From: Hydrolagus colliei
Taxonomy: Eukaryota
DNA length: 64,000 nt
Assembly: GCA_035084275.1 (NCBI GenBank)
Contig: CM068767.1
Location: 8,742,001 to 8,806,000 of the forward strand
Direction: 5' to 3'
Positions within the stretch are counted from its first letter, which is position 1. The number at the start of each line of letters is the position of its first letter. This document shows, piece by piece, positions 3,453 to 64,000 of this stretch. Both the position numbers and the translations under genes were made by a program. Below the pieces are notes generated by a model. It made no database searches. It saw only the letters and a list, made by a program, of their open reading frames with translations, and had not been told where the DNA came from.

Positions 3453-3489
3453 AGATGGGTGGATAGTGAAGATGGAGCTTTCTTGTGTC

Positions 3490-8199: not shown

Positions 8200-8451
8200 N
8201 NNNNNNNNNNNNNNNNNNNNNNNNNNNNNNNNNNNNNNNNNNNNNNNNNNNNNNNNNNNNNNNNNNNNNNNNNNNNNNNNNNNNNNNNNNNNNNNNNNNN
8301 NNNNNNNNNNNNNNNNNNNNNNNNNNNNNNNNNNNNNNNNNNNNNNNNNNNNNNNNNNNNNNNNNNNNNNNNNNNNNNNNNNNNNNNNNNNNNNNNNNNN
8401 NNNNNNNNNNNNNNNNNNNNNNNNNNNNNNNNNNNNNNNNNNNNNNNNNNN
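8200..8451. other. Assembly gap (252 N)
   Basis: Run of N. Confidence 1.
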
Positions 8452-9868: not shown

Positions 9869-10129
9869 CCCCGTTGCTGCTGAAACGCTACCACAAAGGG
9901 TTTGTGGCTATCCGGCTGGGGCTGGGTGGGTGCACCAATCGACCCTTCTACAGGATCGTGGCAGCTCACAACAAGCGAGCTCGGGATGGCAAGTACCTGG
10001 AGCAGCTGGGCTCGTATGACCCAGTGCCCAATGTCTTTGCCGAAAAGTTGGTCAGTTTGAATTATGAGAGGCTTCGTTACTGGATGGCATGTGGAGCTCA
10101 ATTGACTAAACCGGTGGCCAAACTTCTAG
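9869..10129 (+). CDS. mrps16: Mitochondrial ribosomal protein S16, coding exon 2
   Basis: ttcacag|CC...CTA G|gtattg, 261 nt; encodes (S)[86 protein letters not shown], the ribosomal S16 domain. Confidence 0.97.
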
Positions 10130-11570: not shown

Positions 11571-11704
11571 GCCTGGCTGGGTTTTTCCCGCTGCATCCTA
11601 TGACTGTCACCACGGCAGAGAGACTGCTGAGGCTGCGAGCACGCGCTGTGCCCACAGAGCCCGCGGATGAGGTGAAAACGGCAGATCCCAGGGATGTGGC
11701 CTAG
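11571..11704 (+). CDS. mrps16: Mitochondrial ribosomal protein S16, coding exon 3 (to TAG)
   Basis: gttttag|GC CTG GCT GGG TTT TTC CCG CTG CAT CCT ATG encodes [44 protein letters not shown]. Total CDS 13+261+134=408 nt, 135 aa. Confidence 0.95.
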
Positions 11705-18832: not shown

Positions 18833-18944
18833 ATGCGGCAGTCTACCGCACAGAAGATCTTCAGAAGGACTACTCTGAGAGAGCCAAAGGATAACACATG
18901 GTTTGTTCTCCTGACTTTAGTGCTTGTGCAGCTTCATTCACAGG
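18833..18944 (+). CDS. Probable first coding exon (signal-peptide-like) of the giant mucin-like gene
   Basis: In-frame TGA 15 nt upstream; encodes MRQSTAQKIFRRTTLREPKDNTWFVLLTLVLVQLHSQ (basic n-region, hydrophobic h-region); strong donor CAGG|gtaagg in phase 1, compatible with the phase-1 acceptor at 24160. Confidence 0.65.
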
Positions 18945-24159: not shown

Positions 24160-27100
24160 GAGACAGTACAACAATTTTCTATCCACAAACCTCTCAAAAG
24201 GAAAGTGCTACTCAGAAAGCAACATCAAATGCAATTCAACGCAGAAATCAATCATCTAATATTCCTGCATCATTCTTTCCCATTTCTACTCCTACGACTC
24301 CATCCGAGGTAAGCAGCTCATCTGAGTCACCCGTAACCTCTCCTGCTGAAGAACCATCATCTTCTACTGAACCAACATCGCAAGTGACAACTATGATTAC
24401 AGATAGTGCTCCTGTCTCTCAGGAAAGCAGTAGCTTTGCTTCCTCCTCAAGATCTCAAACAACTCAGTCATCGACTCCCTCTGACACTTCCTCACAGTTG
24501 CTTCCAATTTCTGAAATTGCATCTACACATCTCTCAACTGGTGGCACATCATTTAGCCCTGCAAAATCCTCATCTGATGCTTCTACAGACACAGGTGAAC
24601 CACAAACCCTCTCCACATGGTCAACTGCAGTTGATAATGAACCTTCCACAAGCTCAATACCACTTTCCACATCACAAGAATCATACCTCACAACAGAATC
24701 AACATTCTCCCCGGAAGAGCCAACCACAGCAATCACTCCAACTGTACCTATTTCAAAAACACAAACATCCCCCTTCACAAGTTCTGTGTCATACCCATCA
24801 CAGTCACATGCCACCCCTTTGTCAATGGAAACTTCTGCTTCATCAAAAATAACGTCGGATGAAACCGCTCAAACTGCTCACCGTGTTCCCTCATCTCCAG
24901 AGACCTCAACTTCTTTACCTCCCTCTACACTGGAGTTATCAACGCTGGTAGAAACTTCATTCCAAAGTCTCAATACTATGTCAGACATCACTTCCACACA
25001 AGAATCCAGTCATTCATCATATTTGACATCAGGATCCTCATTGCCCCCGAAAACTGAGGCAACACCAGAAGCTGTCTCGACAACTCTTTCATCCATTGCC
25101 ACGAAAGAGGCTGCCACTGAGCAGGTTTCACAATCTGCCTTCGACGTGTCCAGTGACACACTGAAAACATCAGTTGGATCAGATACAACAACAATAACAC
25201 CAATCACTTCTTTCTCTATGCACACAGAAACAAGCTCTTCCAATCTTCCAGGGCTATCAGAGCAGACCATCACTCCATCTGAGTCACACATATCTAGCTC
25301 TGAAATGGAAACCTCTTCAATGCTGCAATCAACAGCATCTGTAGCAATTGCAGATGATCTGACACGCGTGGTTTCTGAGCGGATAGCAAGCTCTGATTCT
25401 ACAATTTACTCCACAGTTGAGCCAACATCCGTTTCTGAGTTTTCATCTACAGAAGATTCTACTTCCACAGTACCATCCAACAGTCAAGAACCTCGCTCCT
25501 TATCCCACGTTGCAACAATCTCAACAACATTTGTCACTCCTGAAGTAACATCACGTTCAATGTTGATGTCAACAAAATCAAGCATCACTGAAGACAATCT
25601 ATCAACCTCTTCTTCTCATTCCACCGTTGAAATATCCAGTATCATTCCAAAGTCAACCATGCTACCTGAAAAATCGCCAACTAGCACAGTTACTCAGTCC
25701 ACTCAAAGCATTGAAATCAGTTCTCGTGCAGCTTCTTCAATTAAGGAAAGCAGCTCATCTGAGTCACACGTAACCTCTCCTGCTGAAGAACCATCATCTT
25801 CCACTGAACCAACATCGCAAGTGACAACTATGATTACTGATAGTGCTCCTGTCTCTCAGGAAAGCAGTAGCTTTGCTTCCTCTTCAAGATCTCAAACAAC
25901 TCAGTCATCGACTCCCTCTGACACTTCCTCACAGTTGCTTCCAATTTCTGAAATTGCGTCCACATATCTCTCAATTGGTGGCACATCATTTAGCCCTGCA
26001 AAATCCTCATCTGATGCTTCTACAGACACAGGTGAACCACAAACTCTCTCCACATGGTCAACTGCAGTTGATCATGAACCTTCCACAAGCTCAATACCAC
26101 TTTCCACATCACAAGCATCATACCTCACAACAGAATCAACATTCTCCCCGGAAGAGCCAACCACAGCAATCACTCCAACTGTACCTGTTTCAAAAACACA
26201 AACATCCCCCTTCACAAGTTCTCTGTCATACCCATCACAGTCACATGCCACCCCTTTGTCAATGGAAACTTCTGCTTCATCAAAAGTAAGTTCGGTTGAA
26301 ACCGCTCAATCTGCTCACAGTGTTCCCTCATCTCCAGAGACCTCAACTTCTTTACCTCCCTCCACAATGGAGTTATCAACGCTGGTAGAAACTTCATTCC
26401 AAAGTCTCAATACTATGTCAGACATCACTTCCACGCAAGAATCCAGTCATTCATTATATTTGACATCAGGATCCTCATTGCCCCCGAAAACTGAGGCAAC
26501 ACCAGAAGCTGTCTCAACAACTCTTTCATCCATTGCCACGAAAGAGTCTGCCACTGAGCAGGTTTCACAATCTACCTTCGACGTGTCCAGTGACACACTG
26601 AAAACATCAGTTGGATCAGATACAATAACACCAATCACTTCTTTCTCTATGCACACAGAAACAAGCTCTACCAATCTTCCAGGGCTATCAGAGCAGACCA
26701 TCACTCCATCTGAGTCACACATATCTAGCTCTGAAATGGAAACCTCTTCAATGCTGCAATCAACAGCATCTGTAGCAATTGCAGATGATCTGACACGCGT
26801 GGTTTCTGAACAGATAGCAAGCTCTGATTCTACAATTTACTCCACAGTTGAGCCAACATCCGTTTCTGAGTTTTCATCTACAGAAGATTCTACTTCCACA
26901 GTACCATCCAACAGTCAAGAACCTCGCTCCTTATCCCACGTTGCAACAATCTCAACAACATTTGTCACTCCTGAAGTGACATCACGTTCAATGTTGATGT
27001 CAACAAAATCAAGCATCACTGAAGACAATCTATCAACGTCTTCTTCTCATTCCACTGTTGAAATATCCAGTATCATTCCAAAGTCAACCATGCTACCTGA

Positions 27101-30100
27101 AGAATCGCCAACTAGCACAGTTACTCAGTCCACTCAAAGCATTGAAATCAGTTCTCGTGTAGCTCCTTCAACTGAGGAAAGCAGCTCATCTGAGTCACAC
27201 GTAACCTCTCCTGCTGAAGAACCATCATCTTCCACTGAACCAACATCGCAAGTGACAACTATGATTACTGATAGTGCTCCTGTCTCTCAGGAAAGCAGTA
27301 GCTTTGCTTCCTCCTCAAGATCTCAAACAACTCAGTCATCGACTCCCTCTGACACTTCCTCACAGTTGCTTCCAATTTCTGAAATTGCGTCCACACATCT
27401 CTCAACTGGTGACACATCATTTAGCCCTACAAAATCCTCATCTGATGCTTCTACAGACACAGGTGAACCACAAACCCTCTCCACATGGTCAACTGCAGTT
27501 GATAATGAACCTACCACAAGCTCAATACCTCTTTCCACATCACAAGCATCATACCTCACAACAGAATCAACATTCTCCCCGGAAGAGCCAACCACAGCAA
27601 TCACTCCAACTGTACCTGTTTCAAAAACACAAACATCCCCCTTCACAAGTTCTCTGTCATACCCATCACAGTCACATGCCACCCCTTTGTCAATGGAAAC
27701 TTCTGCTTCATCAAAAGTAAGTTCGGTTGAAACCGCTCAATCTGCTCACAGTGTTCCCTCATCTCCAGAGACCTCAACTTCTTTACCTCCCTCTACAATG
27801 GAGTTATCAACGCTGGTAGAAACTTCATTCCAAAGTCTCAATACTATGTCAGACATCACTTCCACGCAAGAATCCAGTCATTCATTATATTTGACATCAG
27901 GATCCTCATTGCCCCCGAAAACTGAGGCAACACCAGAAGCTGTCTCAACAACTCTTTCATCCATTGCCACGAAAGAGTCTGCCACTGAGCAGGTTTCACA
28001 ATCTACCTTCGACGTGTCCAGTGACACACTGAAAACATCAGTTGGATCAGATACAATAACACCAATCACTTCTTTCTCTATGCACACAGAAACAAGCTCT
28101 ACCAATCTTCCAGGGCTATCAGAGCAGACCATCACTCCATCTGAGTCACACATATCTAGCTCTGAAATGGAAACCTCTTCAATGCTGCAATCAACAGCAT
28201 CTGTAGCAATTGCAGATGATCTGACACGCGTGGTTTCTGAACAGATAGCAAGCTCTGATTCTACAATTTACTCCACAGTTGAGCCAACATCCGTTTCTGA
28301 GTTTTCATCTACAGAAGATTCTACTTCCACAGTACCATCCAACAGTCAAGAACCTCGCTCCTTATCCCACGTTGCAACAATCTCAACAACATTTGTCACT
28401 CCTGAAGTGACATCACGTTCAATGTTGATGTCAACAAAATCAAGCATCACTGAAGACAATCTATCAACGTCTTCTTCTCATTCCACCGTTGAAATATCCA
28501 GTATCATTCCAAAGTCAACCATGCTACCTGAAGAATCGCCAACTAGCACAGTTACTCAGTCCACTCAAAGCATTGAAATCAGTTCTCGTGTAGCTCCTTC
28601 AACTGAGGAAAGCAGCTCATCTGAGTCACACGTAACCTCTCCTGCTGAAGAACCATCATCTTCCACTGAACCAACATCGCAAGTGACAACTATGATTACT
28701 GATAGTGCTCCTGTCTCTCAGGAAAGCAGTAGCTTTGCTTCCTCCTCAAGATCTCAAACAACTCAGTCATCGACTCCCTCTGACACTTCCTCACAGTTGC
28801 TTCCAATTTCTGAAATTGCGTCCACACATCTCTCAACTGGTGACACATCATTTAGCCCTACAAAATCCTCATCTGATGCTTCTACAGACACAGGTGAACC
28901 ACAAACCCTCTCCACATGGTCAACTGCAGTTGATAATGAACCTTCCACAAGCTCAATACCACTTTCCACATCACAAGCATCATACCTCACAACAGAATCA
29001 ACATTCTCCGCGGAAGAGCCAACCACAGCAATCACTCCAACTGTACCTATTTCAAAAACACAAACATCCCCCTTCACAAGTTCTGTGTCATACCCATCAC
29101 AGTCACATGCCACCCCTTTGTCAATGGAAACTTCTGCTTCATCAAAAGTAAGTTCGGTTGAAACCGCTCAATCTGCTCACAGTGTTCCCTCATCTCCAGA
29201 GACCTCAACTTCTTTACCTCCCTCTACAATGCAGTTATCAACGCTGGTAGAAACTTCATTCCAAAGTCTCAATACTATGTCAGACATCACTTCCACGCAA
29301 GAATCCAGTCATTCATTATATTTGACATCAGGATCCTCATTGCCCCCAAGAACTGAGGCAACACCAGAAGCTGTCTCAACAACTCTTTCATCCATTGCCA
29401 CGAAAGAGTCTGCCACTGAGCAGGTTTCACAATCTACCTTCGACGTGTCCAGTGACACACTGAAAACATCAGTTGGATCAGATACAATAACACCAATCAC
29501 TTCTTTCTCTATGCATGCAGAAACAAGCTCTACCAATCTTCCAGGGCTATCAGAGCAGACCATCACTCCATCTGAGTCACACCTATCAAGCTCTGAAATG
29601 GAAACCTCTTCCATGCTGCAATCAACAGCAGCTGTAGCAAGTACAGATGATCTGACACGCGTGGTTTCTGAGCGGATAGCAAGCTCTGATTCTACAATTT
29701 ACTCCACAGTTGAGCCAACATCGGTTTCTAAGTTTTCATCGACAGAAGATTCTACTTCCACACTACCATCCAACAGTCAAGAACCTCGCTCCTCATCCCA
29801 TGTTGCAACAATCTCAACAACATTTGTCACTCCTGAAGTAACATCACATTCAATGTTGATGTCAACAAAATCAAGCATCACTGAAGACAATCGATCAACG
29901 TCTTCTTCTCATTCCACAGTTGAAATATCCAGTATCATTCCAAAGTCAACCATGCTACCTGAAGAATCGCCAACTAGCACAGTTACTCAGTCCACTCAAA
30001 GCATTGAAATCAGTTCTCGTGTAGCTCCTTCAACTGACGAAAGCAGCTCATCTGAGTCACACGTAACCTCTCCTGCTGAAGAACCATCATCTTCCACTGA

Positions 30101-33100
30101 ACCAACATCGCAAGTGACAACTATTATTACTGATGGTGCTCCTGTCTCTCAGGAAAGCAGCAGCTTTGCTTCCTCCTCAAGATCTCAAACAACTCAGTCA
30201 TCGACTCCCTCTGACACTTCCTCACAGTTGCTTCCAATTTCTGAAATTGCGTCCACACATCTCTCAACTGGTGGCACATCATTTAGCCCTACAAAATCCT
30301 CATCTGATGCTTCTACAGACACAGGTGAACCACAAACTCTCGCCACATGGTCAACTGCAATTGATAATGAACCTTCCACAAGCTCAATACCTCTTTCCAC
30401 ATCACAAGCATCATACCTCACAACAGAATCAACATTCTCCCCGGAAGAGCCAACCACAGCAATCACTCCAACTGTACCTATTTCAAAAACACAAACATCC
30501 CCCTTCACAAGTTCTGTGTCATACCCATCACAGTCACATGCCACCCCTTTGTCAATGGAAACTTCTGCTTCATCAAAAGTAACGTCGGTTGAAACCGCTC
30601 AAACTGCTCACAGTGTTGCCTCATCTCCAGAGACCTCAACTTCTTTACCTCCCTCTACAATGGATTTATCACCGCTGGTAGAAACTTCATTCCAAAGTCT
30701 CAATACTATGTCAGACATCACTTCCACACAAGAATTCAGTCATTCATCATATTTGACATCAGGATCCTCATTGCCCCCGAAAACTGAGGCAACACCAGAA
30801 GCTGTCTCAACAACTCTTTCATCCATTGCCACGAAAAAGTCTGCCACTGAGCAGTTTTCACAATCTACCTTCGACGTGTCCAGTGACACACTGAAAACAT
30901 CAGTTGGATCAGATACAACAACAATAACACCAATCACTTCTTTCTCTATGCACACAGAAACAAGCTCTACCAATCTTCCAGGGCTATCAGAGCAGACCAT
31001 CACTCCATCTGAGTCACACCTATCTAGCTCTGAAATGGAATCCTCTTCCATGCTGCAATCAACAGCATCTGTAGCAAGTACAGATGACCTGACACCCGTG
31101 GTTTCTGAGCGGATAGCAAGCTCTGATTCTACAATTTACTCCACAGTTGAGCCAACATCCGTTTCTGAGTTTTCATCTACAGAAGATTCTACTTCCACAG
31201 TACCATCCAACAGTCAAGAACCTCGCGCCTCATCCCATGTTGCAACAATCTCAACAACATTTGTCACTCCTGAAGTAACATCACATTCAATGTTGATGTC
31301 AACAAAATCAAGCATCACTGAAGACAATCTATCAACGTCTTCTTCTCATTCCACCGTTGAAATATCCAGTATCATTCCAAAGTCAACCATGCTACCTGAA
31401 GAATCGCCAACTAGCACAGTTACTCAGTCCACTCAAAGCATTGAAATCAGTTCTCGTGTAGCTCCTTCAACTGAGGAAAGCAGCTCATCTGAGTCACCCG
31501 TAACCTCTCCTGCTGAAGAACCATCATCTTCCACTGAACCAACATCGCAAGTGACAACTATGATTACTGATAGTGCTCCTGTCTCTCAGGAAAGCAGTAG
31601 CTTTGCTTCCTCCTCAAGATCTCAAACAACTCAGTCATCGACTCCCTCTGACACTTCTTCACAGTTGCTTCCAATTTCTGAAATTGCGTCCACACATCTC
31701 TCAACTGGTGGCACATCATTTAGCCCTACAAAATCCTCATCTGATGCTTCTACAGACATAGGTGAACCACAAACCCTCTCCACATGGTCAACTGCAGTTG
31801 ATAATGAACCTTCCACAAGCTCAATACCTCTTTCCACATCACAAGCATCATACCTCACAACAGAATTAACATTCTCTGCGGAAGAGCCAACCACAGCAAT
31901 CACTCCAACTGTACCTATTTCAAAAACACAAACATCCCCCTTCACAAGTTCTGTGTCATACCCATCACAGTCACATGCCACCCCTTTGTCAATGGAAACT
32001 TCTGCTTCATCAAAAGTAACGTCGGATGAAACAGCTCAAACTGCTCACAGTGTTCCCTCATCTCCAGAGACCTCAACTTCTTTACCTCCCTCTACAATGG
32101 AGTTATCATCGCTGGTAGAAACTTCATTCCAAAGTCTCAATACGATGTCAGACATCACTTCCACACAAGAATCCAGTCATTCATTATATTTGACATCAGG
32201 ATCCTCATTGCCACCGAAAACTGAGACAACACCAGAAGCTGTCTCGACAACTCTTTCATCCATTGCCACGAAAGAGTCTGTCACTGAGCAGGTTTCACAA
32301 TCTGCCTTCGACGTGTCCAGTGACACACTGAAAACATCAGTTGGATCAGATACAACAACAATAACACCAATCACGTCTTTCTCTATGCACACAGAAACAA
32401 GCTCTACCAATCTTCCAGGTCCATCAGAGCAGACCATCACTCCATCTGAGTCACACCTATCTAGCTCTGAAATGGAAACCTCTTCCATGCTGCAATCAAC
32501 AGCATCTTTAGCAAGTACAGATGATCTGACACGCGTGGTTTCTGAGCGGATAGCAAGCTCTGATTCTACAATTTACTCCACAGTTGAGACAACATCCGTT
32601 TCTGAGTTTTCATCTGCAGAAGATTCTACTTCCACACTACCATCCAACAGTCAAGAACCTCGCTCCTCATCCCACGTTGCAACAATCTCAACAACATTTG
32701 TCACTCCTGAAGTAACATCACATTCAATGTTGATGTCAACAAAATCAAGCATCACTGAAGACAATCGATCAACGTCTTCTTCTCATTCCACCGTTGAAAT
32801 ATCCAGTATCATTCCAAAGTCAACAATGCTACCTGAAGAATCGCCAACTAGCACAGTTACTCAGTCCACTCAAAGCATTGAAATCAGTTCTCGTGTAGCT
32901 CCTTCAACTGAGGAAAGCAGCTCATCTCAGTCACACGTAACCTCTCCTGCTGAAGAACCATCATCTTCCACTGAACCAACATCGCAAGTGACAACTATGA
33001 TTACTGATGGTGCTCCTGTCTCTCAGGAAAGCAGCAGCTTTGCTTCCTCCTCAAGATCTCAAACAACTCAGTCATCGACTCCCTCTGACACTTCCTCACA

Positions 33101-36100
33101 GTTGCTTCCAATTTCTGAAATTGCGTCCACACATCTCTCAACTGGTGGCACATCATTTAGCCCTACAAAATCCTCAACTTCTACAGACACAGGTGAACCA
33201 CAAACCCTCGCCACATGGTCAACTGCAATTGATAATGAACCTTCCACAAGCTCAATACCACTTTCCACATCACAAGCATCATACCTCACAACAGAATCAA
33301 CATTCTCTGCGGAAGAGCCAACCACAGCAATCACTCCAACTGTACCTATTTCAAAAACACAAACATCCCCCTTCACAAGTTCTGTGTCATACCCATCACA
33401 GTCACATGCCACCCCTTTGTCAATGGAAACTTCTGCTTCATCAAAAGTAACGTCGGATGAAACCGCTCAAACTGCTCACAGTGTTCCCTCATCTCCAGAG
33501 ACCTCAACTTCTTTACCTCCCTCTACAATGGAGTTATCATCGCCTGTAGAAACTTCATTCCAAAGTCTCAATACGATGTCAGACATCACTTCCACACAAG
33601 AATCCAGTCATTCATTATATTTGACATCAGGATCCTCATTGCCACCGAAAACTGAGACAACACCAGAAGCTGTCTCGACAACTCTTTCATCCATTGCCAC
33701 GAAAGAGTCTGTCACTGAGCAGGTTTCACAATCTGCCTTCGACGTGTCCAGTGACACACTGAAAACATCAGTTGGATCAGATACAACAACAATAACACCA
33801 ATCACGTCTTTCTCTATGCACGCAGAAACAAGCTCTACCAATCTTCCAGGTCCATCAGAGCAGACCATCACTCCATCTGAGTCACACCTATCTAGCTCTG
33901 AAATTGAAACCTCTTCCATGCTGCAATCAACAGCATCTTTAGCAAGTACAGATGATCTGACACGCGTGGTTTCAGAGCGGATAGCAAGCTCTGATTCTAC
34001 AATTTACTCCACAGTTGAGCCAACATCCGTTTCTGAGTTTTCATCTACAGAAGATTCTACTTCCACACTACCATCCAACAGTCAAGAACCTCGCTCCTCA
34101 TCCCACGTTGCAACAATCTCAACAACATTTGTCACTCCTGAAGTAACATCACACTCAATGTTGATGTCAACAAAATCAAGCATCACTGAAGACAATCTAT
34201 CAACGTCTTCTTCTCATTCCACCGTTGAAATATCCAGTATCATTCCAAAGTCAACCATGCTACCTGAAGAATCGCCAACTAGCACAGTTACTCAGTCCAC
34301 TCAAAGCATTGAAATCAGTTCTCGTGTAGCTCCTTCAACTGAGGAAAGCAGCTCATCTGAGTCACACGTAACCTCTCCTGCTGAAGAACCATCATCTTCC
34401 ACTGAACCAACATCGCAAGTGACAACTATGATTACTGATAGTGCTCCTGTCTCTCAGGAAAGCAGTAGCTTTGCTTCCTCCTCAAGATCTCAAACAACTC
34501 AGTCATCGACTCCCTCTGACACTTCCTCACAGTTGCTTCCAATTTCTGAAATTGCGTCCACACATCTCTCAACTGGTGGCACATCATTTAGCCCTACAAA
34601 ATCCTCATCTGATGCTTCTACAGACACAGGTGAACCACAAACCCTCTCCACATGGTCAACTGCAGTTGATAATGAACCTTCCACAAGCTCAATACCTCTT
34701 TCCACATCACAAGCATCATACCTCACAACAGAATCAACATTCTCCCCGGAAGAGCCAACCACAGCAATCACTCCAACTGTACCTATTTCAAAAACACAAA
34801 CATCCCCCTTCACAAGTTCTGTGTCATACCCATCACAGTCACATGCCACCCCTTTGTCAATGGAAACTTCTGCTTCATCAAAAGTAACGTCGGATGAAAC
34901 CGCTCAAACTGCTCACAGTGATCCCTCATCTCCAGAGACCTCAACTTCTTTACCTCCCTCTACAATGGAGTTATCACCGCTGGTAGAAACTTCATTCCAA
35001 AGTCTCAATACGATGTCAGACATCAGTTCCATACAAGAATCCAGTCATTCATTATATTTGACATCAGGATCCTCATTGCCCCCGAAAACTGAGACAACAC
35101 CAGAAGCTGTCTTGACAACTCTTTCATCCATTGCCACGAAAGAGTCTGCCACTGAGCAGGTTTCACAATCTACCTTCGACGTGTCCAGTGACACACTGAA
35201 AACATCAGTTGGATCAGATACAACAACAATAACAACAATCACTTCTTTCTCTATGCACACAGAAACAAGCTCTACCAATCTTCCAGGGCTATCAGAGCAG
35301 ACCATCACTCCATCTCAGTCACACCTATCCAGCTCCAAAATGGAAACCTCTTCCATGCTGCAATCAACAGCATCTGTAGCAAGTACAGATGATCTGACAC
35401 CCGTGGTTTCTGAGCGGATAGCAAGCTCTGATTCTACAATTTACTCCACAGTTCAGCCAACATCCGTTTCTGAGTTTTCATCAACAGAAGATTCTACTTC
35501 CACACTACCATCCAACAGTCAAGAACCTCGCTCCTCATCCCATGTTGCAACAATCTCACCAACATATGTCACTCCTGAAGTAACATCACATTCAATGTTG
35601 ATGTCAACAAAATCAAGTATCACTGAAGACAATCGATCAACGTCTTCTTCTCATTCCACCGTTGAAATATCCAGTATCATTCCAAAGTCAACAATGCCAC
35701 CTGAAGAATCGCCAACTAGCACAGTTACTCAGTCCACTCAAAGCATTGAAATCAGTTCTCGTGTAGCTCCTTCAACTGAGGAAAGCAGCTCATCTGAGTC
35801 ACACGTAACCTCTCCTGCTGAAGAACCATCATCTTCCACTGAACCAACATCGCAAGTGACAACTATGATTACTGATGGTGCTCCTGTCTCTCAGGAAAGC
35901 AGCAGCTTTGCTTCCTCCTCAAGATCTCAAACAACTCAGTCATCGACTCCCTCTGACACTTCCTCACAGTTGCTTCCAATTTCTGAAATTGCGTCCACAC
36001 ATCTCTCAACTGGTGGCACATCATTTAGCCCTACAAAATCCTCATCTGATGCTTCTACAGACACAGGTGAACCACAAACCCTCTCCACATGGTCAACTGC

Positions 36101-51100: not shown

Positions 51101-54100
51101 CACTCCATCTCAGTCACACCTATCCAGCTCCGAAATGGAAACCTCTTCCATGCTGCAATCAACAGCATCTGTAGCAAGTACAGATGATCTGACACCCGTG
51201 GTTTCTGAGCGGATAGCAAGCTCTGATTCTACAATTTACTCCACAGTTGAGCCAACATCCGTTTCTGAGTTTTCATCAACAGAAGATTCTACTTCCACAC
51301 TACCATCCAACAGTCAAGAACCTCGCTCCTCATCCCATGTTGCAACAATCTCACCAACATATGTCACTCCTGAAGTAACATCACATTCAATGTTGATGTC
51401 AACAAAATCAAGTATCACTGAAGACAATCTATCAACGTCTTATTCTCATTCCACCGTTGAAATATCCAGTATCATTCCAAAGTCAACAATGCCACCTGAA
51501 GAATCGCCAACTAGCACAGTTACTCAGTCCACTCAAAGCATTGAAATCAGTTCTCGTGTAGCTCCTTCAACTGAGGAAAGCAGCTCATCTGAGTCACACG
51601 TAACCTCTCCTGCTGAAGAACCATCATCTTCCACTGAACCAACATCGCAAGTGACAACTATGATTACTGATGGTGCTCCTGTCTCTCAGGAAAGCAGCAG
51701 CTTTGCTTCCTCCTCAAGATCTCAAACAACTCAGTCATCGACTCCCTCTGACACTTCCTCACAGTTGCTTCCAATTTCTGAAATTGCGTCCACACATCTC
51801 TCAACTGGTGACACATCATTTAGCCCTACAAAATCCTCATCTGATGCTTCTACAGACACAGGTGAACCACAAACGCTCTCCACATGGTCAACTGCAGTTG
51901 ATAATGAACCTTCCACAAGCTCAATACCTCTTTCCACATCACAAGCATCATACGTCACAACAGAATCAACATTCTCTCCGGAAGAGCCAACCACAGCAAT
52001 CACTCCAACTGTATCTGTTTCAAAAACACAAACATCCCCCTTCACAAGTTCTGTGTCATACCCATCACAGTCACATGCCACCCCTTTGTCAATGGAAACT
52101 TCTGCTTCATCAAACGTAACGTCGGCTGAAACCGCTCAAACTGCTCACAGTGTTCCCTCATCTCCAGAGACCTCAACTTCTTTACCTCCCTCTACAATGG
52201 AGTTATCATCGCTGGTAGAAACTTCATTCCAAAGTCTCAATACGATGTCAGACATCACTTCCATACAAGAATCCAGTCATTCATTATATTTGACATCAGG
52301 ATCCTCATTGCCACCGAAAACAGAGACAACACCAGAAGCTGTCTCCACAACTCTTTCATCCATTGCCACGAAAGAGTCTGTCACTGAGCAGGTTTCACAA
52401 TCATCCTTCGACGTGTCCAGTGACACACTGAAAACATCAGTTGGATCAGATACAACAATAATAACACCAATCACTTCTTTCTCTATGCACACAGAAACAA
52501 GCTCTACCAATCTTCCAGGGCTATCAGAGCAGACCATCACTCCATTTGAGTCACACCTATCTAGCTCTGAAATGGAAACCTCTTCCATGCTGCAATCAAC
52601 AGCATCTGTAGCAAGTACAGATGATCTGACACGCGTGGTTTCTGAGCGGATAGCAAGCTCTGATTCTACAATTTACTCCACAGTTGAGACAACATCCGTT
52701 TCTGAGTTTTCATCTGCAGAAGATTCTACTTCCACACTACCATCCAACAGTCAAGAACCTCGCTCCTCATCCCACGTTGCAACAATCTCAACAACATTTG
52801 TCACTCCTGAAGTAACATCACATTCAATGTTGATGTCAACAAAATCAAGCATCACTGAAGACAATCGATCAACGTCTTCTTCTCATTCCACCGTTGAAAT
52901 ATCCAGTATCATTCCAAAGTCAACCATGCTACCTGAAGAATCGCCGACTAGCACAGTTACTCAGTCCACTCAAAGCATTGAAATCAGTTCTCGTGTAGCT
53001 CCTTCAACTGAGGAAAGCAGCTCATCTGAGTCACACGTAACCTCTCCTGCTGAAGAACCATCATCTTCCACTGAACCAACATCGCAAGTGACAACTATGA
53101 TTACTGATGGTGCTCCTGTCTCTCAGGAAAGCAGCAGCTTTGCTTCCTCCTCAAGATCTCAAACAACTCAGTCATCGACTCCCTCTGACACTTCCTCACA
53201 GTTGCTTCCAATTTCTGAAATTGCGTCCACACATCTCTCAACTGGTGACACATCATTTAGCCCAACAAAATCCTCATCTGATGCTTCTACAGACACAGGT
53301 GAACCACAAACGCTCTCCACATGGTCAACTGCAGTTCATAATGAACCTTCCACAAGCTCAATACCTCTTTCCACATCACAAGCATCATACCTCACAACAG
53401 AATCAACATTCTCCCCGGAAGAGCCAACCACAGCAATCACTCCAACTGTACCTATTTCAAAAACACAAACATCCCCCTTCACAAGTTCTGTGTCATACCC
53501 ATCACAGTCACATGCCACCCCTTTGTCAATGGAAACTTCTGCTTCATCAAAAGTAACGTCGGATGAAACCGCTCAAACTGCTCACAGTGTTCCCTCATCT
53601 CCAGAGACCTCAACTTCTTTACCTCCCTCTACAATGGAGTTATCACCGCTGGTAGAAACTTCATTCCAAAGTCTCAATACGATGTCAGACATCAGTTCCA
53701 TACAAGAATCCAGTCATTCATTATATTTGACATCAGGATCCTCATTGCCCCCGAAAACTGAGACAACACCAGAAGCTGTCTTGACAACTCTTTCATCCAT
53801 TGCCACGAAAGAGTCTGCCACTGAGCAGGTTTCACAATCTACCTTCGACGTGTCCAGTGACACACTGAAAACATCAGTTGGATCAGATACAACAATAACA
53901 CCAATCACTTCTTTCTCTATGCACACAGAAACAAGCTCTACCAATCTTCCAGGGTTATCAGAGCAGACCATCACTCCATTTGAGTCACACCTATCTAGCT
54001 CTGAAATGGAAACCTCTTCCATGCTGCAATCAACAGCATCTGTAGCAAGTACAGATGATCTGACACGCGTGGTTTCTGAGCGGATAGCAAGCTCTGATTC

Positions 54101-57100
54101 TACAATTTACTCCACAGTTGAGACAACATCCGTTTCTGAGTTTTCATCTGCAGAAGATTCTACTTCCACACTACCATCCAACAGTCAAGAACCTCGCTCC
54201 TCATCCCACGTTGCAACAATCTCAACAACATTTGTCACTCCTGAAGTAACATCACATTCAATGTTGATGTTAACAAAATCAAGTATCACTGAAGACAATC
54301 TATCAACGTCTTCTTCTCATTCCACCGTTGAAATATCCAGTATCATTCCAAAGTCAACCATGCTACCTGAAGAATCGCCAACTAGCACAGTTACTCAGTC
54401 CACTCAAAGCATTGAAATCAGTTCTCGTGTAGCTCCTTCAACTGAGGAAAGCAGCTCATCTGAGTCACACGTAACCTCTCCTACTGAAGAACCACCATCT
54501 TCCACTGAACCAACATCGCAAGTGACAACTATGATTACTGATGGTGCTCCTGTCTCTCAGGAAAGCAGCAGCTTTGCTTCCTCCTCAAGATCTCAAACAA
54601 CTCAGTCATCGACTCCCTCTGACACTTCCTCACAGTTGCTTCCAATTTCTGAAATTGCGTCCACACATCTCTCAGCTGGTGGCACATCATTTAGCCCTAC
54701 AAAATCCTCATCTGATGCTTCTACAGACACAGGTGAACCACAAACCCTCTCCACATGGTCAACTGCAGTTGATAATGAACCTTCCACAAGCTCAATACCT
54801 CTTTCCACATCACAAGCATCATACCTCACAACAGAATCAACATTCTCCCCGGAAGAGCCAACCACAGCAATCACTCCAACTGTACCTATTTCAAAAACAC
54901 AAACATCCCCCTTCACAAGTTCTGTGTCATACCCATCACAGTCACATGCCACCCCTTTGTCAATGGAAACTTCTGCTTCATCAAAAGTAACGTCGGATGA
55001 AACAGCTCAAACTGCTCACAGTGTTCCCTCATCTCCAGAGACCTCAACTTCTTTACCTCCCTCTACAATGGAGTTATCACCGCTGGTAGAAACTTCATTC
55101 CAAAGTCTCAATACGATGTCAGACATCAGTTCCATACAAGAATCCAGTCATTCATTATATTTGACATCAGGATCCTCATTGCCCCCGAAAACTGAGACAA
55201 CACCAGAAGCTGTCTCGACAACTCTTTCATCCATTGCCACGAAAGAGTCTGCCACTGAGCAGGTTTCACAATCTACCTTCGACCTGTCCAGTGACACACT
55301 GAAAACATCAGTTGGATCAGATACAACAATAACACCAATCACTTCTTTCTCTATGCACACAGAAACAAGCTCTACCAATCTTCCAGGGCTATCAGAGCAG
55401 ACCATCACTCCATTTGAGTCACACCTATCTAGCTCTGAAATGGAAACCTCTTCCATGCTGCAATCAACAGCCTCTGTAGCAAGTACAGATGATCTGACAC
55501 GCGTGGTTTCTGAGCGGATAGCAAGCTCTGATTCTACAATTTACTCCACAGTTGAGACAACATCCGTTTCTGAGTTTTCATCTGCAGAAGATTCTACTTC
55601 CACACTACCATCCAACAGTCAAGAACCTCGCTCCTCATCCCACGTTGCAACAATCTCAACAACATTTGTCACTCCTGAAGTAACATCACATTCAATGTTG
55701 ATGTCAACAAAATCAAGCATCACTGAAGACAATCGATCAACGTCTTCTTCTCATTCCACCGTTGAAATATCCAGTATCATTCCAAAGTCAACCATGCTAC
55801 CTGAAGAATCGCCGACTAGCACAGTTACTCAGTCCACTGAAAGCATTGAAATCAGTTCTCGTGTAGCTCCTTCAACTGAGGAAAGCAGCTCATCTGAGTC
55901 ACACGTAACCTCTCCTGCTGAAGAACCATCATCTTCCACTGAACCAACATCGCAAGTGACAACTATGATTACTGATGGTGCTCCTGTCTCTCAGGAAAGC
56001 AGCAGCTTTGCTTCCTCCTCAAGATCTCAAACAACTCAGTCATCGACTCCCTCTGACACTTCCTCACAGTTGCTTCCAATTTCTGAAATTGTGTCCACAC
56101 ATCTCTCAACTGGTGGCACATCATTTAGCCCTACAAAATCCTCATCTGATGCTTCTACAGACACAGGTGAACCACAAACCCTCTCCACATGGTCAACTGC
56201 AGTTGATAATGAACCTTCCACAAGCTCAATACCTCTTTCCACATCACAAGCATCATACCTCACAACAGAATCAACATTCTCCCCGGAAGAGCCAACCACA
56301 GCAATCACTCCAACTGTACCTATTTCAAAAACACAAACATCCCCCTTCACAAGTTCTGTGTCATCCCCATCACAGTCACATGCCACCCCTTTGTCAATGG
56401 AAACTTCTGCTTCATCAAAAGTAACGTCGGATGAAACCGCTCAAACTGCTCACAGTGTTCCCTCATCTCCAGAGACCTCAACTTCTTTACCTCCCTCTAC
56501 AATGGAGTTATCAACGCTGGTAGAAACTTCATTCGAAAGTCTCAATACTATGTCAGACATCACTTCCACACAAGCATCCAGTCATTCATCATATTTGACA
56601 TCAGGATCCTCATTGCCCCCGAAAACTGAGGCAACACCAGAAGCTGTCTCAACAACTCTTTCATCCATTTCCACGAAAGAGTCTGCCACTGAGCAGGTTT
56701 CACAATCTACCTTCGACGTGTCCAGTGACACACTGAAAACATCAGTTGAATCAGATACAACAACAATAACACCAATCACTTCTTTCTCTATGCACACAGA
56801 AACAAGCTCTACCAATCTTCCAGGGCTATCAGAGCAGACCATCACTCCATCTCAGTCACACCTATCCAGCTCCGAAATGGAAACCTCTTCCATGCTGCAA
56901 TCAACAGCATCTGTAGCAAGTACAGATGATCTGACACCCGTGGTTTCTGAGCGGATAGCAAGCTCTGATTCTACAATTTACTCCACAGTTGAGCCAACAT
57001 CCGTTTCTGAGTTTTCATCAACAGAAGATTCTACTTCCACACTACCATCCAACAGTCAAGAACCTCGCTCCTCATCCCACGTTGCAACAATCTCAACAAC

Positions 57101-60100
57101 ATTTGTCACTCCTGAAGTAACATCACATTCAATGTTGATGTCAACAAAATCAAGCATCACTGAAGACAATCGATCAACGTCTTCTTCTCATTCCACCGTT
57201 GAAATATCCAGTATCATTCCAAAGTCAACCATGCTACCTGAAGAATCGCCGACTAGCACAGTTACTCAGTCCACTCAAAGCATTGAAATCAGTTCTCGTG
57301 TAGCTCCTTCAACTGAGGAAAGCAGCTCATCTGAGTCACACGTAACCTCTCCTGCTGAAGAACCATCATCTTCCACTGAACCAACATCGCAAGTGACAAC
57401 TATGATTACTGATGGTGCTCCTGTCTCTCAGGAAAGCAGCAGCTTTGCTTCCTCCTCAAGATCTCAAACAACTCAGTCATCGACTCCCTCTGACACTTCC
57501 TCACAGTTGCTTCCAATTTCTGAAATTGCGTCCACACATCTCTCAACTGTTGGCACATCATTTAGCCCTGCAGAATCTTCATCTGATGCTTCTACAGACA
57601 CAGGTGAACCACAAACCCTCTCCACATGGTCAACTGCAGTTGATAATGAACCTTCCACACGCTCAATACCTCTTTCCACATCACAAGCATCATACCTCAC
57701 AACAGAATCAACATTCTCCCCGGAAGAGCCAACCACAGCAATCACTCCAACTGTACCTATTTCAAAAACACAAACATCCCCCTTCACAAGTTCTGTGTCA
57801 TACCCATCACAGTCACATGCCACCCCTTTGTCAATGGAAACTTCTGCTTCATCAAAAGTAACGTCGGATGAAACCGCTCAAACTGCTCACAGTGTTCCCT
57901 CATCTCCAGAGACCTCAACTTCTTTACCTCCCTCTTCAATGGAGTTATCAACGCTGGTAGAAACTTCATTCGAAAGTCTCAATACTATGTCAGACATCAC
58001 TTTCACACAAGAATCCAGTCATTCATCATATTTGACATCAGGATCCGCATTGCCCCCGAAAACTGAGGCAACACCAGAAGCTGTCTCAACAACTCATTCA
58101 TCCATTTCCACGAAAGAGTCTGCCACTGAGCAGGTTTCACAATCTACCTTCGACGTGTCCAGTGACACACTGAAAACATCAGTTGGATCAGATACAACAA
58201 CAATAACAACAATCACTTCTTTCTCTATGCACACAGAAACAAGCTCTACCAATCTTCCAGGGCTATCAGAGCAGACCATCACTCCATCTCAGTCACACCT
58301 ATCCAGCTCCAAAATGGAAACCTCTTCCATGCTGCAATCAACAGCATCTGTAGCAAGTACAGATGATCTGACACCCGTGGTTTCTGAGCGGATAGCAAGC
58401 TCTGATTCTACAATTTACTCCACAGTTCAGCCAACATCCGTTTCTGAGTTTTCATCAACAGAAGATTCTACTTCCACACTACCATCCAACAGTCAAGAAC
58501 CTCGCTCCTCATCCCATGTTGCAACAATCTCACCAACATATGTCACTCCTGAAGTAACATCACATTCAATGTTGATGTCAACAAAATCAAGTATCACTGA
58601 AGACAATCGATCAACGTCTTCTTCTCATTCCACCGTTGAAATATCCAGTATCATTCCAAAGTCAACAATGCCACCTGAAGAATCGCCAACTAGCACAGTT
58701 ACTCAGTCCACTCAAAGCATTGAAATCAGTTCTCGTGTAGCTCCTTCAACTGAGGAAAGCAGCTCATCTGAGTCACACGTAACCTCTCCTGCTGAAGAAC
58801 CATCATCTTCCACTGAACCAACATCGCAAGTGACAACTATGATTACTGATGGTGCTCCTGTCTCTCAGGAAAGCAGCAGCTTTGCTTCCTCCTCAAGATC
58901 TCAAACAACTCAGTCATCGACTCCCTCTGACACTTCCTCACAGTTGCTTCCAATTTCTGAAATTGCGTCCACACATCTCTCAACTGGTGGCACATCATTT
59001 AGCCCTACAAAATCCTCATCTGATGCTTCTACAGACACAGGTGAACCACAAACCCTCTCCACATGGTCAACTGCAGTTGATAATGAACCTTCCACAAGCT
59101 CAATACCTCTTTCCACATCACAAGCATCATACCTCACAACAGAATCAACATTCTCCCCAGAAGAGCCAACCACAGCAATCACTCCAACTGTACCTATTTC
59201 AAAAACACAAACATCCCCCTTCACAAGTTCTGTGTCATACCCATCACAGTCACATGCCACCCCTTTGTCAATGGAAACTTCTGCTTCATCAAAAGTAACG
59301 TCGGATGAAACCGCTCAAACTGCTCACAGTGTTCCCTCATCTCCAGAGACCTCAACTTCTTTACCTCCCTCTACAATGGAGTTATCACCGCTGGTAGAAA
59401 CTTCATTCCAAAGTCTCAATACTATGTCAGACATCACTTCCACACAAGAATCCAGTCATTCATTATATTTGACATCAGGATCCTCATTGCCCCCGAAAAC
59501 TGAGACAACACCAGAAGCTGTCTCGACAACTCTTTCATCCATTGCCACGAAAGAGTCTGCCACTGAGCAGGTTTCACAATCTACCTTCGACCTGTCCAGT
59601 GACACACTGAAAACATCAGTTGGATCAGATACAACAATAACACCAATCACTTCTTTCTCTATGCACACAGAAACAAGCTCTACCAATCTTCCAGGGCTAT
59701 CAGAGCAGACCATCACTCCATTTGAGTCACACCTATCTAGCTCTGAAATGGAAACCTCTTCCATGCTGCAATCAACAGCATCTGTAGCAAGTACAGATGA
59801 TCTGACACGCGTGGTTTCTGAGCGGATAGCAAGCTCTGATTCTACAATTTACTCCACAGTTGAGACAACATCCGTTTCTGAGTTTTCATCTGCAGAAGAT
59901 TCTACTTCCACACTACCATCCAACAGTCAAGAACCTCGCTCCTCATCCCACGTTGCAACAATCTCAACAACATTTGTCACTCCTGAAGTAACATCACATT
60001 CAATGTTGATGTCAACAAAATCAAGCATCACTGAAGACAATCGATCAACGTCTTCTTCTCATTCCACCGTTGAAATATCCAGTATCATTCCAAAGTCAAC

Positions 60101-63100
60101 CATGCTACCTGAAGAATCGCCGACTAGCACAGTTACTCAGTCCACTCAAAGCATTGAAATCAGTTCTCGTGTAGCTCCTTCAACTGAGGAAAGCAGCTCA
60201 TCTGAGTCACACGTAACCTCTCCTGCTGAAGAACCATCATCTTCCACTGAACCAACATCGCAAGTGACAACTATGATTACTGATGGTGCTCCTGTCTCTC
60301 AGGAAAGCAGCAGCTTTGCTTCCTCCTCAAGATCTCAAACAACTCAGTCATCGACTCCCTCTGACACTTCCTCACAGTTGCTTCCAATTTCTGAAATTGC
60401 GTCCACACATCTCTCAACTGGTGGCACATCATTTAGCCCTACAAAATCCTCATCTGATGCTTCTACAGACACAGGTGAACTACAAACCCTCTCCACATGG
60501 TCAACTGCAGTTGATAATGAACCTTCCACAAGCTCAATACCTCTTTCCACATCACAAGCATCATACCTCACAACAGAATCAACATTCTCCCCGGAAGAGC
60601 CAACCACAGCAATCACTCCAACTGTACCTATTTCAAAAACACAAACATCCCCCTTCACAAGTTCTGTGTCATACCCATCACAGTCACATGCCACCCCTTT
60701 GTCAATGGAAACTTCTGCTTCATCAAAAGTAACGTCGGATGAAACCGCTCAAACTGCTCACAGTGTTCCCTCATCTCCAGAGACCTCAACTTCTTTACCT
60801 CCCTCTACAATGGATTTATCAACGCTGGTAGAAACTTCATTCGAAAGTCTCAATACTATGTCAGACATCACTTCCACACAAGAATCCAGTCATTCATCAT
60901 ATTTGACATCAGGATCCTCATTGCCCCCGAAAACTGAGGCAACACCAGAAGCTGTCTCAACAACTCTTTCATCCATTTCCACGAAAGAGTCTGCCACTGA
61001 GCAGGTTTCACAATCTACCTTCGACGTGTCCAGTGACACACTGAAAACATCAGTTGGATCAGATACAACAACAATAACAACAATCACTTCTTTCTCTATG
61101 CACACAGAAACAAGCTCTACCAATCTTCCAGGGCTATCAGAGCAGACCATCACTCCATCTGAGTCACACCTATCCAGCTCCGAAATGGAAACCTCTTCCA
61201 TGCTGCAATCAACAGCATCTGTAGCAAGTACAGATGATCTGACACCCGTGGTTTCTGAGCGGATAGCAAGCTCTGATTCTACAATTTACTCCACAGTTGA
61301 GCCAACATCCGTTTCTGAGTTTTCATCAACAGAAGATTCTACTTCCACACTACCATCCAACAGTCAAGAACCTCGCTCCTCATCCCATGTTGCAACAATC
61401 TCACCAACATATGTCACTCCTGAAGTAACATCACATTCAATGTTGATGTCAACAAAATCAAGTATCACTGAAGACAATCTATCAACGTCTTATTCTCATT
61501 CCACCGTTGAAATATCCAGTATCATTCCAAAGTCAACAATGCCACCTGAAGAATCGCCAACTAGCACAGTTACTCAGTCCACTCAAAGCATTGAAATCAG
61601 TTCTCGTGTAGCTCCTTCAACTGAGGAAAGCAGCTCATCTGAGTCACACGTAACCTCTCCTGCTGAAGAACCATCATCTTCCACTGAACCAACATCGCAA
61701 GTGACAACTATGATTACTGATGGTGCTCCTGTCTCTCAGGAAAGCAGCAGCTTTGCTTCCTCCTCAAGATCTCAAACAACTCAGTCATCGACTCCCTCTG
61801 ACACTTCCTCACAGTTGCTTCCAATTTCTGAAATTGCGTCCACACATCTCTCAACTGGTGACACATCATTTAGCCCTACAAAATCCTCATCTGATGCTTC
61901 TACAGACACAGGTGAACCACAAACGCTCTCCACATGGTCAACTGCAGTTGATAATGAACCTTCCACAAGCTCAATACCTCTTTCCACATCACAAGCATCA
62001 TACGTCACAACAGAATCAACATTCTCTCCGGAAGAGCCAACCACAGCAATCACTCCAACTGTATCTGTTTCAAAAACACAAACATCCCCCTTCACAAGTT
62101 CTGTGTCATACCCATCACAGTCACATGCCACCCCTTTGTCAATGGAAACTTCTGCTTCATCAAACGTAACGTCGGATGAAACCGCTCAAACTGCTCACAG
62201 TGTTCCCTCATCTCCAGAGACCTCAACTTCTTTACCTCCCTCTACAATGGAGTTATCATCGCTGGTAGAAACTTCATTCCAAAGTCTCAATACGATGTCA
62301 GACATCACTTCCATACAAGAATCCAGTCATTCATTATATTTGACATCAGGATCCTCATTGCCACCGAAAACAGAGACAACACCAGAAGCTGTCTCCACAA
62401 CTCTTTCATCCATTGCCACGAAAGAGTCTGTCACTGAGCAGGTTTCACAATCTGCCTTCGACGTGTCCAGTGACACACTGAAAACATCAGTTGGATCAGA
62501 TACAACAACAATAACAACAATCACTTCTTTCTCTATGCACACAGAAACAAGCTCTACCAATCTTCCAGGGCTATCAGAGCAGACCATCACTCCATCTGAG
62601 TCACACCTATCCAGCTCCGAAATGGAAACCTCTTCCATGCTGCAATCAACAGCATCTGTAGCAAGTACAGATGATCTGACACCCGTGGTTTCTGAGCGGA
62701 TAGCAAGCTCTGATTCTACAATTTACTCCACAGTTGAGCCAACATCCGTTTCTGAGTTTTCATCAACAGAAGATTCTACTTCCACACTACCATCCAACAG
62801 TCAAGAACCTCGCTCCTCATCCCATGTTGCAACAATCTCACCAACATATGTCACTCCTGAAGTAACATCACATTCAATGTTGATGTCAACAAAATCAAGT
62901 ATCACTGAAGACAATCTATCAACGTCTTATTCTCATTCCACCGTTGAAATATCCAGTATCATTCCAAAGTCAACAATGCCACCTGAAGAATCGCCAACTA
63001 GCACAGTTACTCAGTCCACTCAAAGCATTGAAATCAGTTCTCGTGTAGCTCCTTCAACTGAGGAAAGCAGCTCATCTGAGTCACACGTAACCTCTCCTGC

Positions 63101-64000
63101 TGAAGAACCATCATCTTCCACTGAACCAACATCGCAAGTGACAACTATGATTACTGATGGTGCTCCTGTCTCTCAGGAAAGCAGCAGCTTTGCTTCCTCC
63201 TCAAGATCTCAAACAACTCAGTCATCGACTCCCTCTGACACTTCCTCACAGTTGCTTCCAATTTCTGAAATTGCGTCCACACATCTCTCAACTGGTGACA
63301 CATCATTTAGCCCTACAAAATCCTCATCTGATGCTTCTACAGACACAGGTGAACCACAAACGCTCTCCACATGGTCAACTGCAGTTGATAATGAACCTTC
63401 CACAAGCTCAATACCTCTTTCCACATCACAAGCATCATACGTCACAACAGAATCAACATTCTCTCCGGAAGAGCCAACCACAGCAATCACTCCAACTGTA
63501 TCTGTTTCAAAAACACAAACATCCCCCTTCACAAGTTCTGTGTCATACCCATCACAGTCACATGCCACCCCTTTGTCAATGGAAACTTCTGCTTCATCAA
63601 ACGTAACGTCGGATGAAACCGCTCAAACTGCTCACAGTGTTCCCTCATCTCCAGAGACCTCAACTTCTTTACCTCCCTCTACAATGGAGTTATCATCGCT
63701 GGTAGAAACTTCATTCCAAAGTCTCAATACGATGTCAGACATCACTTCCATACAAGAATCCAGTCATTCATTATATTTGACATCAGGATCCTCATTGCCA
63801 CCGAAAACAGAGACAACACCAGAAGCTGTCTCCACAACTCTTTCATCCATTGCCACGAAAGAGTCTGTCACTGAGCAGGTTTCACAATCATCCTTCGACG
63901 TGTCCAGTGACACACTGAAAACATCAGTTGGATCAGATACAACAATAATAACACCAATCACTTCTTTCTCTATGCACACAGAAACAAGCTCTACCAATCT
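24160..64000 (+). CDS. Giant PTS (Pro/Thr/Ser-rich) mucin-type exon, open to the window end (partial)
   Basis: Acceptor ttattttattctacag|GA; codons start at positions divisible by 3: (G)DSTTIFYPQTSQKESATQKATSNAIQRRNQSSNIPASFFPISTPTTPSEV-SSSSESPVTSPAEEPSSSTEPTSQVTTMITDSAPVSQESS... I translated unit 1 fully and found no stop. The ORF track lists no stop-terminated ORF in this frame despite in-frame ATGs (e.g. 24393), and all unit lengths are multiples of 3. Confidence 0.9.
24312..64000 (+). repeat. Coding tandem array: 27 complete plus ~0.65 units of 1431-1437 bp (477-479 aa)
   Basis: Equivalent positions recur at 24406, 25843, 27274, 28705, 30136, 31573, 33010, 34441, 35878 ... 61723, 63160; spacings are only 1431, 1434 or 1437; units differ by scattered substitutions. 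Confidence 0.98.

Follow-up and report, generated by a model that had tools for sequence, protein, structure and literature searches.

The stretch of Hydrolagus colliei DNA analysed here (64,000 nucleotides, hereafter the window; GenBank assembly GCA_035084275.1, contig CM068767.1, positions 8,742,001 to 8,806,000 of the forward strand) raises the question of what is encoded by a reading frame that leaves it without having reached a stop codon. Our answer, to which we give a probability of roughly 0.8, is a predicted single-pass membrane mucin of 14,065 residues with a SEA domain, whose stalk would be encoded by one exon and which would belong to a sister lineage of the MUC4-like proteins. The contig is referred to as C34 (window, C34:8742001-8806000), and C18, C33 and C42 are other chromosomes of the same 1.0-Gb genome; L003 is the stretch adjoining the window end.

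Between 23997 and the window end, the plus-strand frame whose codons fall at positions 0 mod 3 runs through 13,334 codons without a stop; the runner-up among the six frames of the window extends for 215 codons. A preliminary description of this DNA, made from the letters, had proposed an open frame of about 13,280 codons from 24162, rich in serine, threonine, proline and glutamate. Computational translation bears this out, giving 13,279 codons, no stops, and a composition of S 27.9%, T 18.1%, E 8.0% and P 7.3%. The acceptor that had been placed at 24160 is also there, with a pyrimidine tract and an AG ending at 24159; the exon, the second of the gene, starts at 24160 in phase 1. Followed into the neighbouring genome sequence, as had been suggested, the frame continues to a GTAAGT donor 1,256 bases beyond the window end (L003:1256). 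Predicted exon 2 is thus 41,097 bp long and gap-free, with 24160..64000 (+) as its window part, and the first in-frame stop lies 128 bases inside the following intron. A unique S/T/P-rich head (24160..24306, +) precedes a tandem array, and the 1,256 bp past the window hold the end of repeat unit 28, a unique S/T tail, a first EGF-like domain (EGF1) and the donor. Judged from its sequence, this open frame of 41 kb likely represents one exon that encodes the whole stalk of a membrane mucin.

Ten predicted exons join in frame by GT-AG introns into a protein of 14,065 aa with one terminal stop and a backbone of 1.47 MDa, in agreement with the earlier suggestion of a giant mucin-like coding exon in a secreted or membrane-tethered glycoprotein of more than 1.3 MDa. 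The predicted order is signal peptide, stalk with abundant proline, threonine and serine (PTS; 28 units), EGF, SEA, EGF, transmembrane helix and tail. Exon 1 (18833..18944, +) is likely a signal exon, as suggested by its ATG, a 22-residue basic n-region, a hydrophobic core at residues 23-34 and a phase-1 donor; it joins exon 2 in frame across GT-AG, and its hydrophobicity is modest (19-residue mean at most 0.96). The stalk comprises 13,656 residues, of which 6,267 are Ser/Thr and none Cys, with 1,518 acidic versus 395 basic residues and 53% S+T+P. The scan of downstream exons for domains that the preliminary description had recommended yielded EGF, SEA, EGF, transmembrane and tail segments, with eight small exons following the giant one. 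All lie on the plus strand: three SEA exons (L003:2275-2396, 2527-2591 and 5320-5519) with the motif G-S-I-L-A at the cleavage hairpin, the EGF2 and transmembrane exons (L003:6062-6224 and 7280-7444), recognized by cysteine pattern and hydropathy, and three tail exons (L003:7823-7893, 8142-8287 and 8751-8807) that end in ...DEKQE and a stop. An AATAAA lies about 190 bases downstream of the stop. The EGF1 loop (L003:1168-1211) is four residues shorter here than in Callorhinchus milii and sharks. Readings of the gene as an adhesion G-protein-coupled receptor (GPCR), as MUC16 or as a secreted gel-forming mucin were ruled out by the one SEA domain, the one transmembrane segment and the stop after the stalk.

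The C-terminal part of the model aligns colinearly with the C. milii protein XP_007896060.2, 261/345 residues (76%) being identical; this part of the model had been built before any homologue was known. The C. milii record, named mucin-3A (344 aa; an earlier version of 377 aa was called mucin-4-like), is the likely orthologue, and no other locus in the genome matched it (7 of 10 candidates were matches). It begins at EGF1, lacking both the stalk and a signal peptide; our model is longer than this record by about 13,700 residues. The absence of the stalk from both record versions accords with the earlier remark that such PTS exons are often collapsed or unannotated.

In Pfam searches the SEA match (E=0.0014) and the EGF1 match (E=0.004) were below the cut-off; in single-exon scans only weak EGF matches appeared, and the three SEA exons, each taken singly, gave no score. 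The EGF-like domains flanking SEA are seen in the cysteine patterns of the gene model. The transmembrane helix corresponds to a hydropathy peak of 3.25 at residue 13,950 and to helix 254-287 in an AlphaFold model of the C. milii orthologue (predicted local distance difference test score, pLDDT, 81.7). When that model was compared with known structures by VIA-align, the five best rows (Z 9.6-11.8) were all SEA-bearing chains, the next row having Z 7.4; the top SEA matches had Z 11.8 (root-mean-square deviation 2.9, 115 aligned) and 11.4, with Foldseek E values of 2e-4 and 9e-4. A sequence search of solved structures gave two chance matches only. In the orthologue model the G-S-I-L-A motif occupies the hairpin that links strands 103-112 and 116-125, and the cleavage-site Gly is invariant in 31/31 aligned relatives. 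Cysteine patterns and the modelled fold point to a juxtamembrane SEA domain flanked by EGF-like domains.

The repeat array (24307..64000, +, ending about 470 bases past the window) consists of 28 tandem units of 1431-1437 bp (477-479 aa), the 28 unit starts being spaced 477-479 codons apart. Among the 27 whole units pairwise differences range from 1 to 55 nt (median 33) and no pair is identical. The closest pairs, 14/23, 16/26 and 17/20, are 1 nt apart, and units 12-14 nearly equal units 21-23, indicating a recent block duplication. No internal sub-repeat or periodicity was found in the unit, nor any similarity between it and the stalks of seven relatives. Tandem Repeats Finder did not report the array, because its longest period is 500. 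Once an open unit has been multiplied and homogenised, the whole array is necessarily open; the test against chance was therefore made on one unit: in 20,000 shuffles the best frame always contained at least 5 stops (mean 17.5). When the 28 units were compared with the majority codon, 163 distinct single-base variants were found, 52 synonymous, 111 non-synonymous and none nonsense, against 40.8, 114.6 and 7.6 expected from the observed mutation spectrum; the deficit of nonsense variants (P=4e-4) and the synonymous excess (P=0.028) are to be read with the reservation that distinct alleles only approximate independent events. The distinct indels among units, 3/3, are of 3 or 6 nt and keep the frame. 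The reading frame of the array is guarded; its residues are barely so.

The length of the array was examined by read depth in public runs, comparing unsplit contig pieces inside the unit with unique flank; seven short allele-split pieces were left out. The unit was 32-46x deeper than the flank in run X1 (5 pieces), 21-32x in X3 (4) and 19-31x in X5 (5), where the assembly predicts ratios of 12-25 for those intervals, although the depth tool states that such figures are not copy numbers and X1 and X3 may be the source of the assembly; X5 is from a different sample and study, making three runs from two samples. In a related organism (run X6, 7 pieces) the unit is 14-49x deeper than the flank, and that organism carries the array too. 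A depth far below the number of assembled units, which the preliminary description would have counted against itself, was not seen (19-46x, with 12-25 expected). These depths give no sign of over-expansion and fit the assembled copy number, and the array is likely both assembled about right and coding.

To which mucins is this gene related? A word-indexed protein search returned only the C. milii record, and a full HMMER search returned 153 relatives, of which 20 were looked up and 19 bore names; the 49 best-scoring (P0001-P0049) are proteins of 147-1133 aa. Careful trees of the membrane-proximal module were built from 34 rows, chosen for coverage and names from an 83-row quick tree, and from 36 rows, the additions being two genes of this genome. 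Group A unites this gene with C. milii, shark, sawfish, paddlefish, teleost and frog members (support 95/94 with 34 rows, 84/84 with 36). Group B is MUC4-like, its seven rows in the careful tree comprising four with NIDO, VWD and C8, one with C8 and EGF, one with EGF and somatomedin B and one with no family. Group C contains reptile, frog and mammalian rows of MUC3/17 type, marked by the pig "mucin-3B-like" protein P0102. Groups A and B are joined at 98/96 and 99/98, and forcing A with C into one clade is rejected by the approximately unbiased (AU) test (p-AU 0.0039), a grouping that was named after the first tree had been seen. No amniote occurs among the 11 named group A rows. Ten named members of the clade, from Pristis, Chiloscyllium, Polyodon, Carassius, Oncorhynchus, Solea, Synchiropus, Hyperolius, Bufo and Xenopus (in the last of which a 2007 study by Lang reportedly recorded seven SEA mucins), share 31-45% identity with the protein of C. 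milii. Their models are short (289-943 aa) and the database names of these fish and frog records are "mucin-3A/3B/17-like"; the same-clade relatives inspected begin within the S/T stalk or at EGF1, as truncated models would. By descent, the sequences thus place this gene in a probable shark, ray-finned fish and frog lineage that is sister to the MUC4-like proteins, apart from the MUC3/12/17 cluster. Among the families that the preliminary description had offered (MUC3/12/17-like, MUC4, MUC16-like, HEG1-like), the MUC3/12/17-like label holds for the domain layout and fails for descent, since tree and neighbours set the gene apart, beside the MUC4-like proteins.

The same genome also carries mucin genes of the other two groups. 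Two MUC4-like C-termini with equal scores lie 140 kb apart on C18 (20.71 and 20.85-20.89 Mb; L044-L051), with further MUC4-like exons upstream of one of them, so that MUC4-like genes exist in a cartilaginous fish. A mucin of the MUC3/17 clade is found at C42:2,176,000-2,207,500 (L043, L039-L041), with a 6.3-kb stalk frame of GPTTT type, EGF-SEA-EGF-transmembrane exons and a probable T-x-V C-terminus; it falls in group C with support 93/96. The C42 gene has a 200-base N stretch in its tail region and a partial second copy about 17 kb upstream. No esterase, serpin or DVL match was found on C42, so that synteny of MUC3 type is not supported for that gene; a search with the AChE tetramer family matched nowhere in the genome and is therefore uninformative.

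The neighbours of the C34 gene were surveyed within about 180 kb, 284 of 1074 candidate frames being scanned. Upstream lie an MRPS16-type gene in the window (9871-10128 and about 11571-11700, +; Pfam Ribosomal_S16, E=1.8e-23) and then, by frame scan, a paired-box and homeobox gene, presumably of PAX7 type to judge from its neighbours, and a weak aldo-keto reductase match (L026:3294-3623, -; L028:6592-6903, -; L038:9516-9692, +). Downstream, about 3.5 kb after the mucin stop, is an ODAD1/CCDC63-type coiled-coil gene (L004 about 2200-7300, +; Pfam ODAD1_CC). It is accompanied by atrophin, Mig-6, at least three class C GPCR genes on both strands (C34:8,877,000-8,898,000; L010-L012; frame scan) beside DVL and an Ig V-set gene, and NOL9. 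Two N stretches, at window 8200-8451 and L009 about 6160-6359, both fall outside the mucin gene. The class C GPCR cluster fits the TAS1R taste-receptor cluster of elephant fish; in species ranging from human to elephant fish, DVL1 and MXRA8 are described as the flanking genes of that cluster (PMC10781636). Only two DVL loci were found in the genome, on C34 and C18, the latter 7 Mb from the MUC4-like genes, and none on C42. We take the DVL/TAS1R neighbour set to be that of human 1p36, which together with 3q26-29 and 7q22/17p13 forms a set of duplication paralogues. The mucins of C34, C18 and C42 fit three paralogues from an early vertebrate genome doubling, but the 7-Mb distance on C18 tempers this reading.

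A broader proposal, which we hold at about even odds, is that a third, unrecognised vertebrate membrane-mucin lineage is here seen full-length for the first time: a whole-genome-duplication paralogue of MUC4 and MUC3/12/17 on the DVL1/TAS1R chromosome, retained in cartilaginous and ray-finned fish and in frogs and mislabelled as mucin-3A/3B/17. If this were true, MUC4 and the MUC3 cluster would go back beyond amphibians to the ancestor of jawed vertebrates, and the membrane-proximal region of MUC4 would be a degenerate SEA domain. Published accounts give MUC3/12/17 as missing from chicken and fish (Lang 2006, PMC1552070), place the first MUC3 cluster in amphibians (PMC9578598) and likewise the deepest Muc4-like protein (PMC4948705). 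This genome, in contrast to the amphibian origins given in PMC9578598 and PMC4948705, holds a MUC3/17-clade gene, MUC4-like genes and the third lineage. The lineage matters more than the size, as studies of fish mucosal immunity that follow "muc3b" or "muc17" may be measuring this other gene; one carp survey lists a "muc17" and reports that muc3 and muc4 were not found (PMC11414713). No description of the lineage or of a chimaera membrane mucin was found in the literature searched; most subscription papers and supplements lay outside that search, so that the lineage may be noted there.

Human MUC3B, MUC3A, MUC12 and MUC17 (7q22) resemble the C34 gene in having a signal peptide, one giant PTS exon, EGF-SEA-EGF, a transmembrane segment and a tail. 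They differ in that this gene forms a separate clade, lacks a class I PDZ motif, has GSILA at the cleavage site and has other neighbours. Its repeat unit is 477-479 aa, as against the perfect 17-aa repeat of MUC3A/B, and EGF1 is inside the giant exon, whereas in the MUC3/17-clade gene on C42 it has a separate exon. In the membrane-proximal module, the closest kin of this gene are its sister group, the MUC4-like proteins (NIDO-VWD-C8-EGF). NIDO, VWD and C8 are all absent from the present gene model, the stalk running directly into EGF1 within exon 2, and a search of the genome for AMOP placed 0/4 matches on C34. MUC4 is described as having no SEA domain (PMC13643018), and the Gly-Ser motif, present in this gene, is missing from the four MUC4-like rows shown; however, the predicted model of the MUC4-clade protein P0058 has the SEA order of strands and helices at residues 213-335. 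HEG1 rows of the ESM Atlas score 0.83-0.85 and serve as leads only, and the trees contain no named MUC13 or HEG1 row.

Besides the limits on the depth figures given above, several observations weigh against this account. The one-exon structure is read from the genome, with splicing and translation predicted, and the N-terminus from exon 1, with its long n-region, is absent from all relatives inspected. Constraint on amino acids in the array is weak (omega-like 0.76). GSILA keeps the catalytic Gly-Ser, but its last two residues differ from the G-S[V/I]VV given for the MUC3/12/17 cluster in PMC13643018. For P0058, the Foldseek comparison was weak, with no match at E<=0.001 and SEA-bearing chains at ranks 2, 3 and 8 behind a transposase. 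In the trees the outgroup consists of long, unnamed rows, leaving the root soft. An X6 contig of the related organism is longer by a net 16 bases close to where exon 2 ends; 12 of these inserted bases correspond to the longer EGF loop seen in C. milii and the other 4 would shift the frame, so that the tethered form may be broken in that organism.

That insertion bears on a first alternative, in which the gene is decaying and the array is open only through homogenisation by gene conversion. The apparent frameshift and the weak amino-acid constraint would suit it; the absence of stops among the 163 variants, the ten intact exons and the 76% identity to C. milii across SEA, EGF, transmembrane segment and tail do not, and we find decay scarcely credible. 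Nor is much to be said for an assembly artefact in which a shorter array was over-expanded, which is extremely improbable: unit pairs 1 nt apart and recurring blocks are what it would leave, but none of the 27 units is identical to another, the exon is gap-free and the unit is 19-46x deeper than the flank in three runs from two samples. Alternatively, the gene might be real and the array mostly spliced out through internal donors, the main product being short and the 41-kb exon minor or tissue-specific. Possible alternative 5' splice sites on the plus strand are a consensus-like phase-0 donor, GAG/GTAAGC, at the array start (24309..24314) and GTAAGT sites in units 2-4 only (26286, 27717 and 29148); these four donor-like sites in the first 5 kb of exon 2 make short spliced forms possible, which counts against the giant product, and the 49 best-scoring relatives are all of modest length (147-1133 aa). 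Yet the donor at 24309 is in phase 0 and the next acceptor in phase 1, exon 2 contains no acceptor with 10 or more pyrimidines, stops have been purged throughout the array, and the inspected same-clade relatives look like truncated models. We therefore regard splicing-out as very improbable. None of the 15 runs listed was marked as RNA; the pieces listed for two unclassified runs (X13, X14) were all repeat-like, and of the 15 joints displayed not one coincided with a predicted splice site.

The remaining alternative concerns descent: as its database name says, the gene could be the chimaera orthologue of the MUC3/12/17 cluster, moved to another chromosome. It has the same domain order and one giant stalk exon; its downstream exon phases equal those of the C42 gene (1,0,2,1,2,2, with one extra intron there), exons of 163 and 165 bp being common to both, and the nearest ESM Atlas clusters are named mucin-12 and mucin-17 (0.95-0.97). 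On the other hand, the AU test rejects a joint clade, a separate gene of the MUC3/17 clade is present in this genome on C42, and the C34 protein has no PDZ motif. Its neighbours are Pax, MRPS16, ODAD1, atrophin, Mig-6, class C GPCR, DVL and NOL9 genes, whereas the MUC3/12/17 cluster lies between ACHE and TRIM56/SERPINE1; as for such neighbours, 0/39 esterase and 0/65 serpin matches fell on C34 (TRIM56 was not searched for). We consider such an orthologue improbable and retain the lineage sister to MUC4-like proteins.

By analogy with MUC1 and MUC17 (PMC13643018), the predicted chain of this SEA-type mucin would enter the endoplasmic reticulum. Its SEA domain would cleave itself at Gly/Ser, the halves staying bound, and some 6,270 Ser/Thr of the cysteine-free stalk would be densely O-glycosylated. 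The mature protein would then be displayed as a long bottle-brush on the epithelial surface, its sugar coat forming a barrier against microbes, and the ectodomain might be shed under shear force. A glycosylated residue contributes about 0.25 nm of length, from which the stalk would reach about 3.4 micrometres. The C-terminus carries no class I PDZ motif, the anchor of MUC17, either here (...DEKQE), in C. milii (...DKARE) or in the shark and frog members shown; retention at the surface therefore likely differs. In the tail, an aromatic-acidic stretch and a V-D-T stretch are kept in several clade members. Unequal crossing-over is the likely means by which the array grows, with stops and frameshifts being eliminated by selection.

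The size of the exon had been described as about twice that of the largest known human coding exons. That comparison does not stand: exon 2 of human MUC3B measures 39,267 bp (13,089 aa) and that of MUC12 32,428 bp in T2T-CHM13 (PMC9578598), and MUC12 alleles, whose sizes span a range of 55,233 bp, encode up to 23,080 aa (PMC13345508, a preprint), which would imply an exon of more than 65 kb. A 41-kb exon is no record and its size is ordinary for the largest SEA mucins. Mucin exons of 40 kb are, however, not a primate peculiarity, as a cartilaginous fish matches the size of MUC3B with a very different unit of 479 residues, and the gene offers a clean case in which to study the definition and transcription of such an exon and the upkeep of its reading frame.

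MUC16 differs from the present model, with its one SEA domain, in having many in tandem. Elsewhere in the genome, at C33:2,925,000-3,075,000, about 25 SEA matches occur, many of them 1.1 or 1.7 kb apart, and mark a probable MUC16-like gene.

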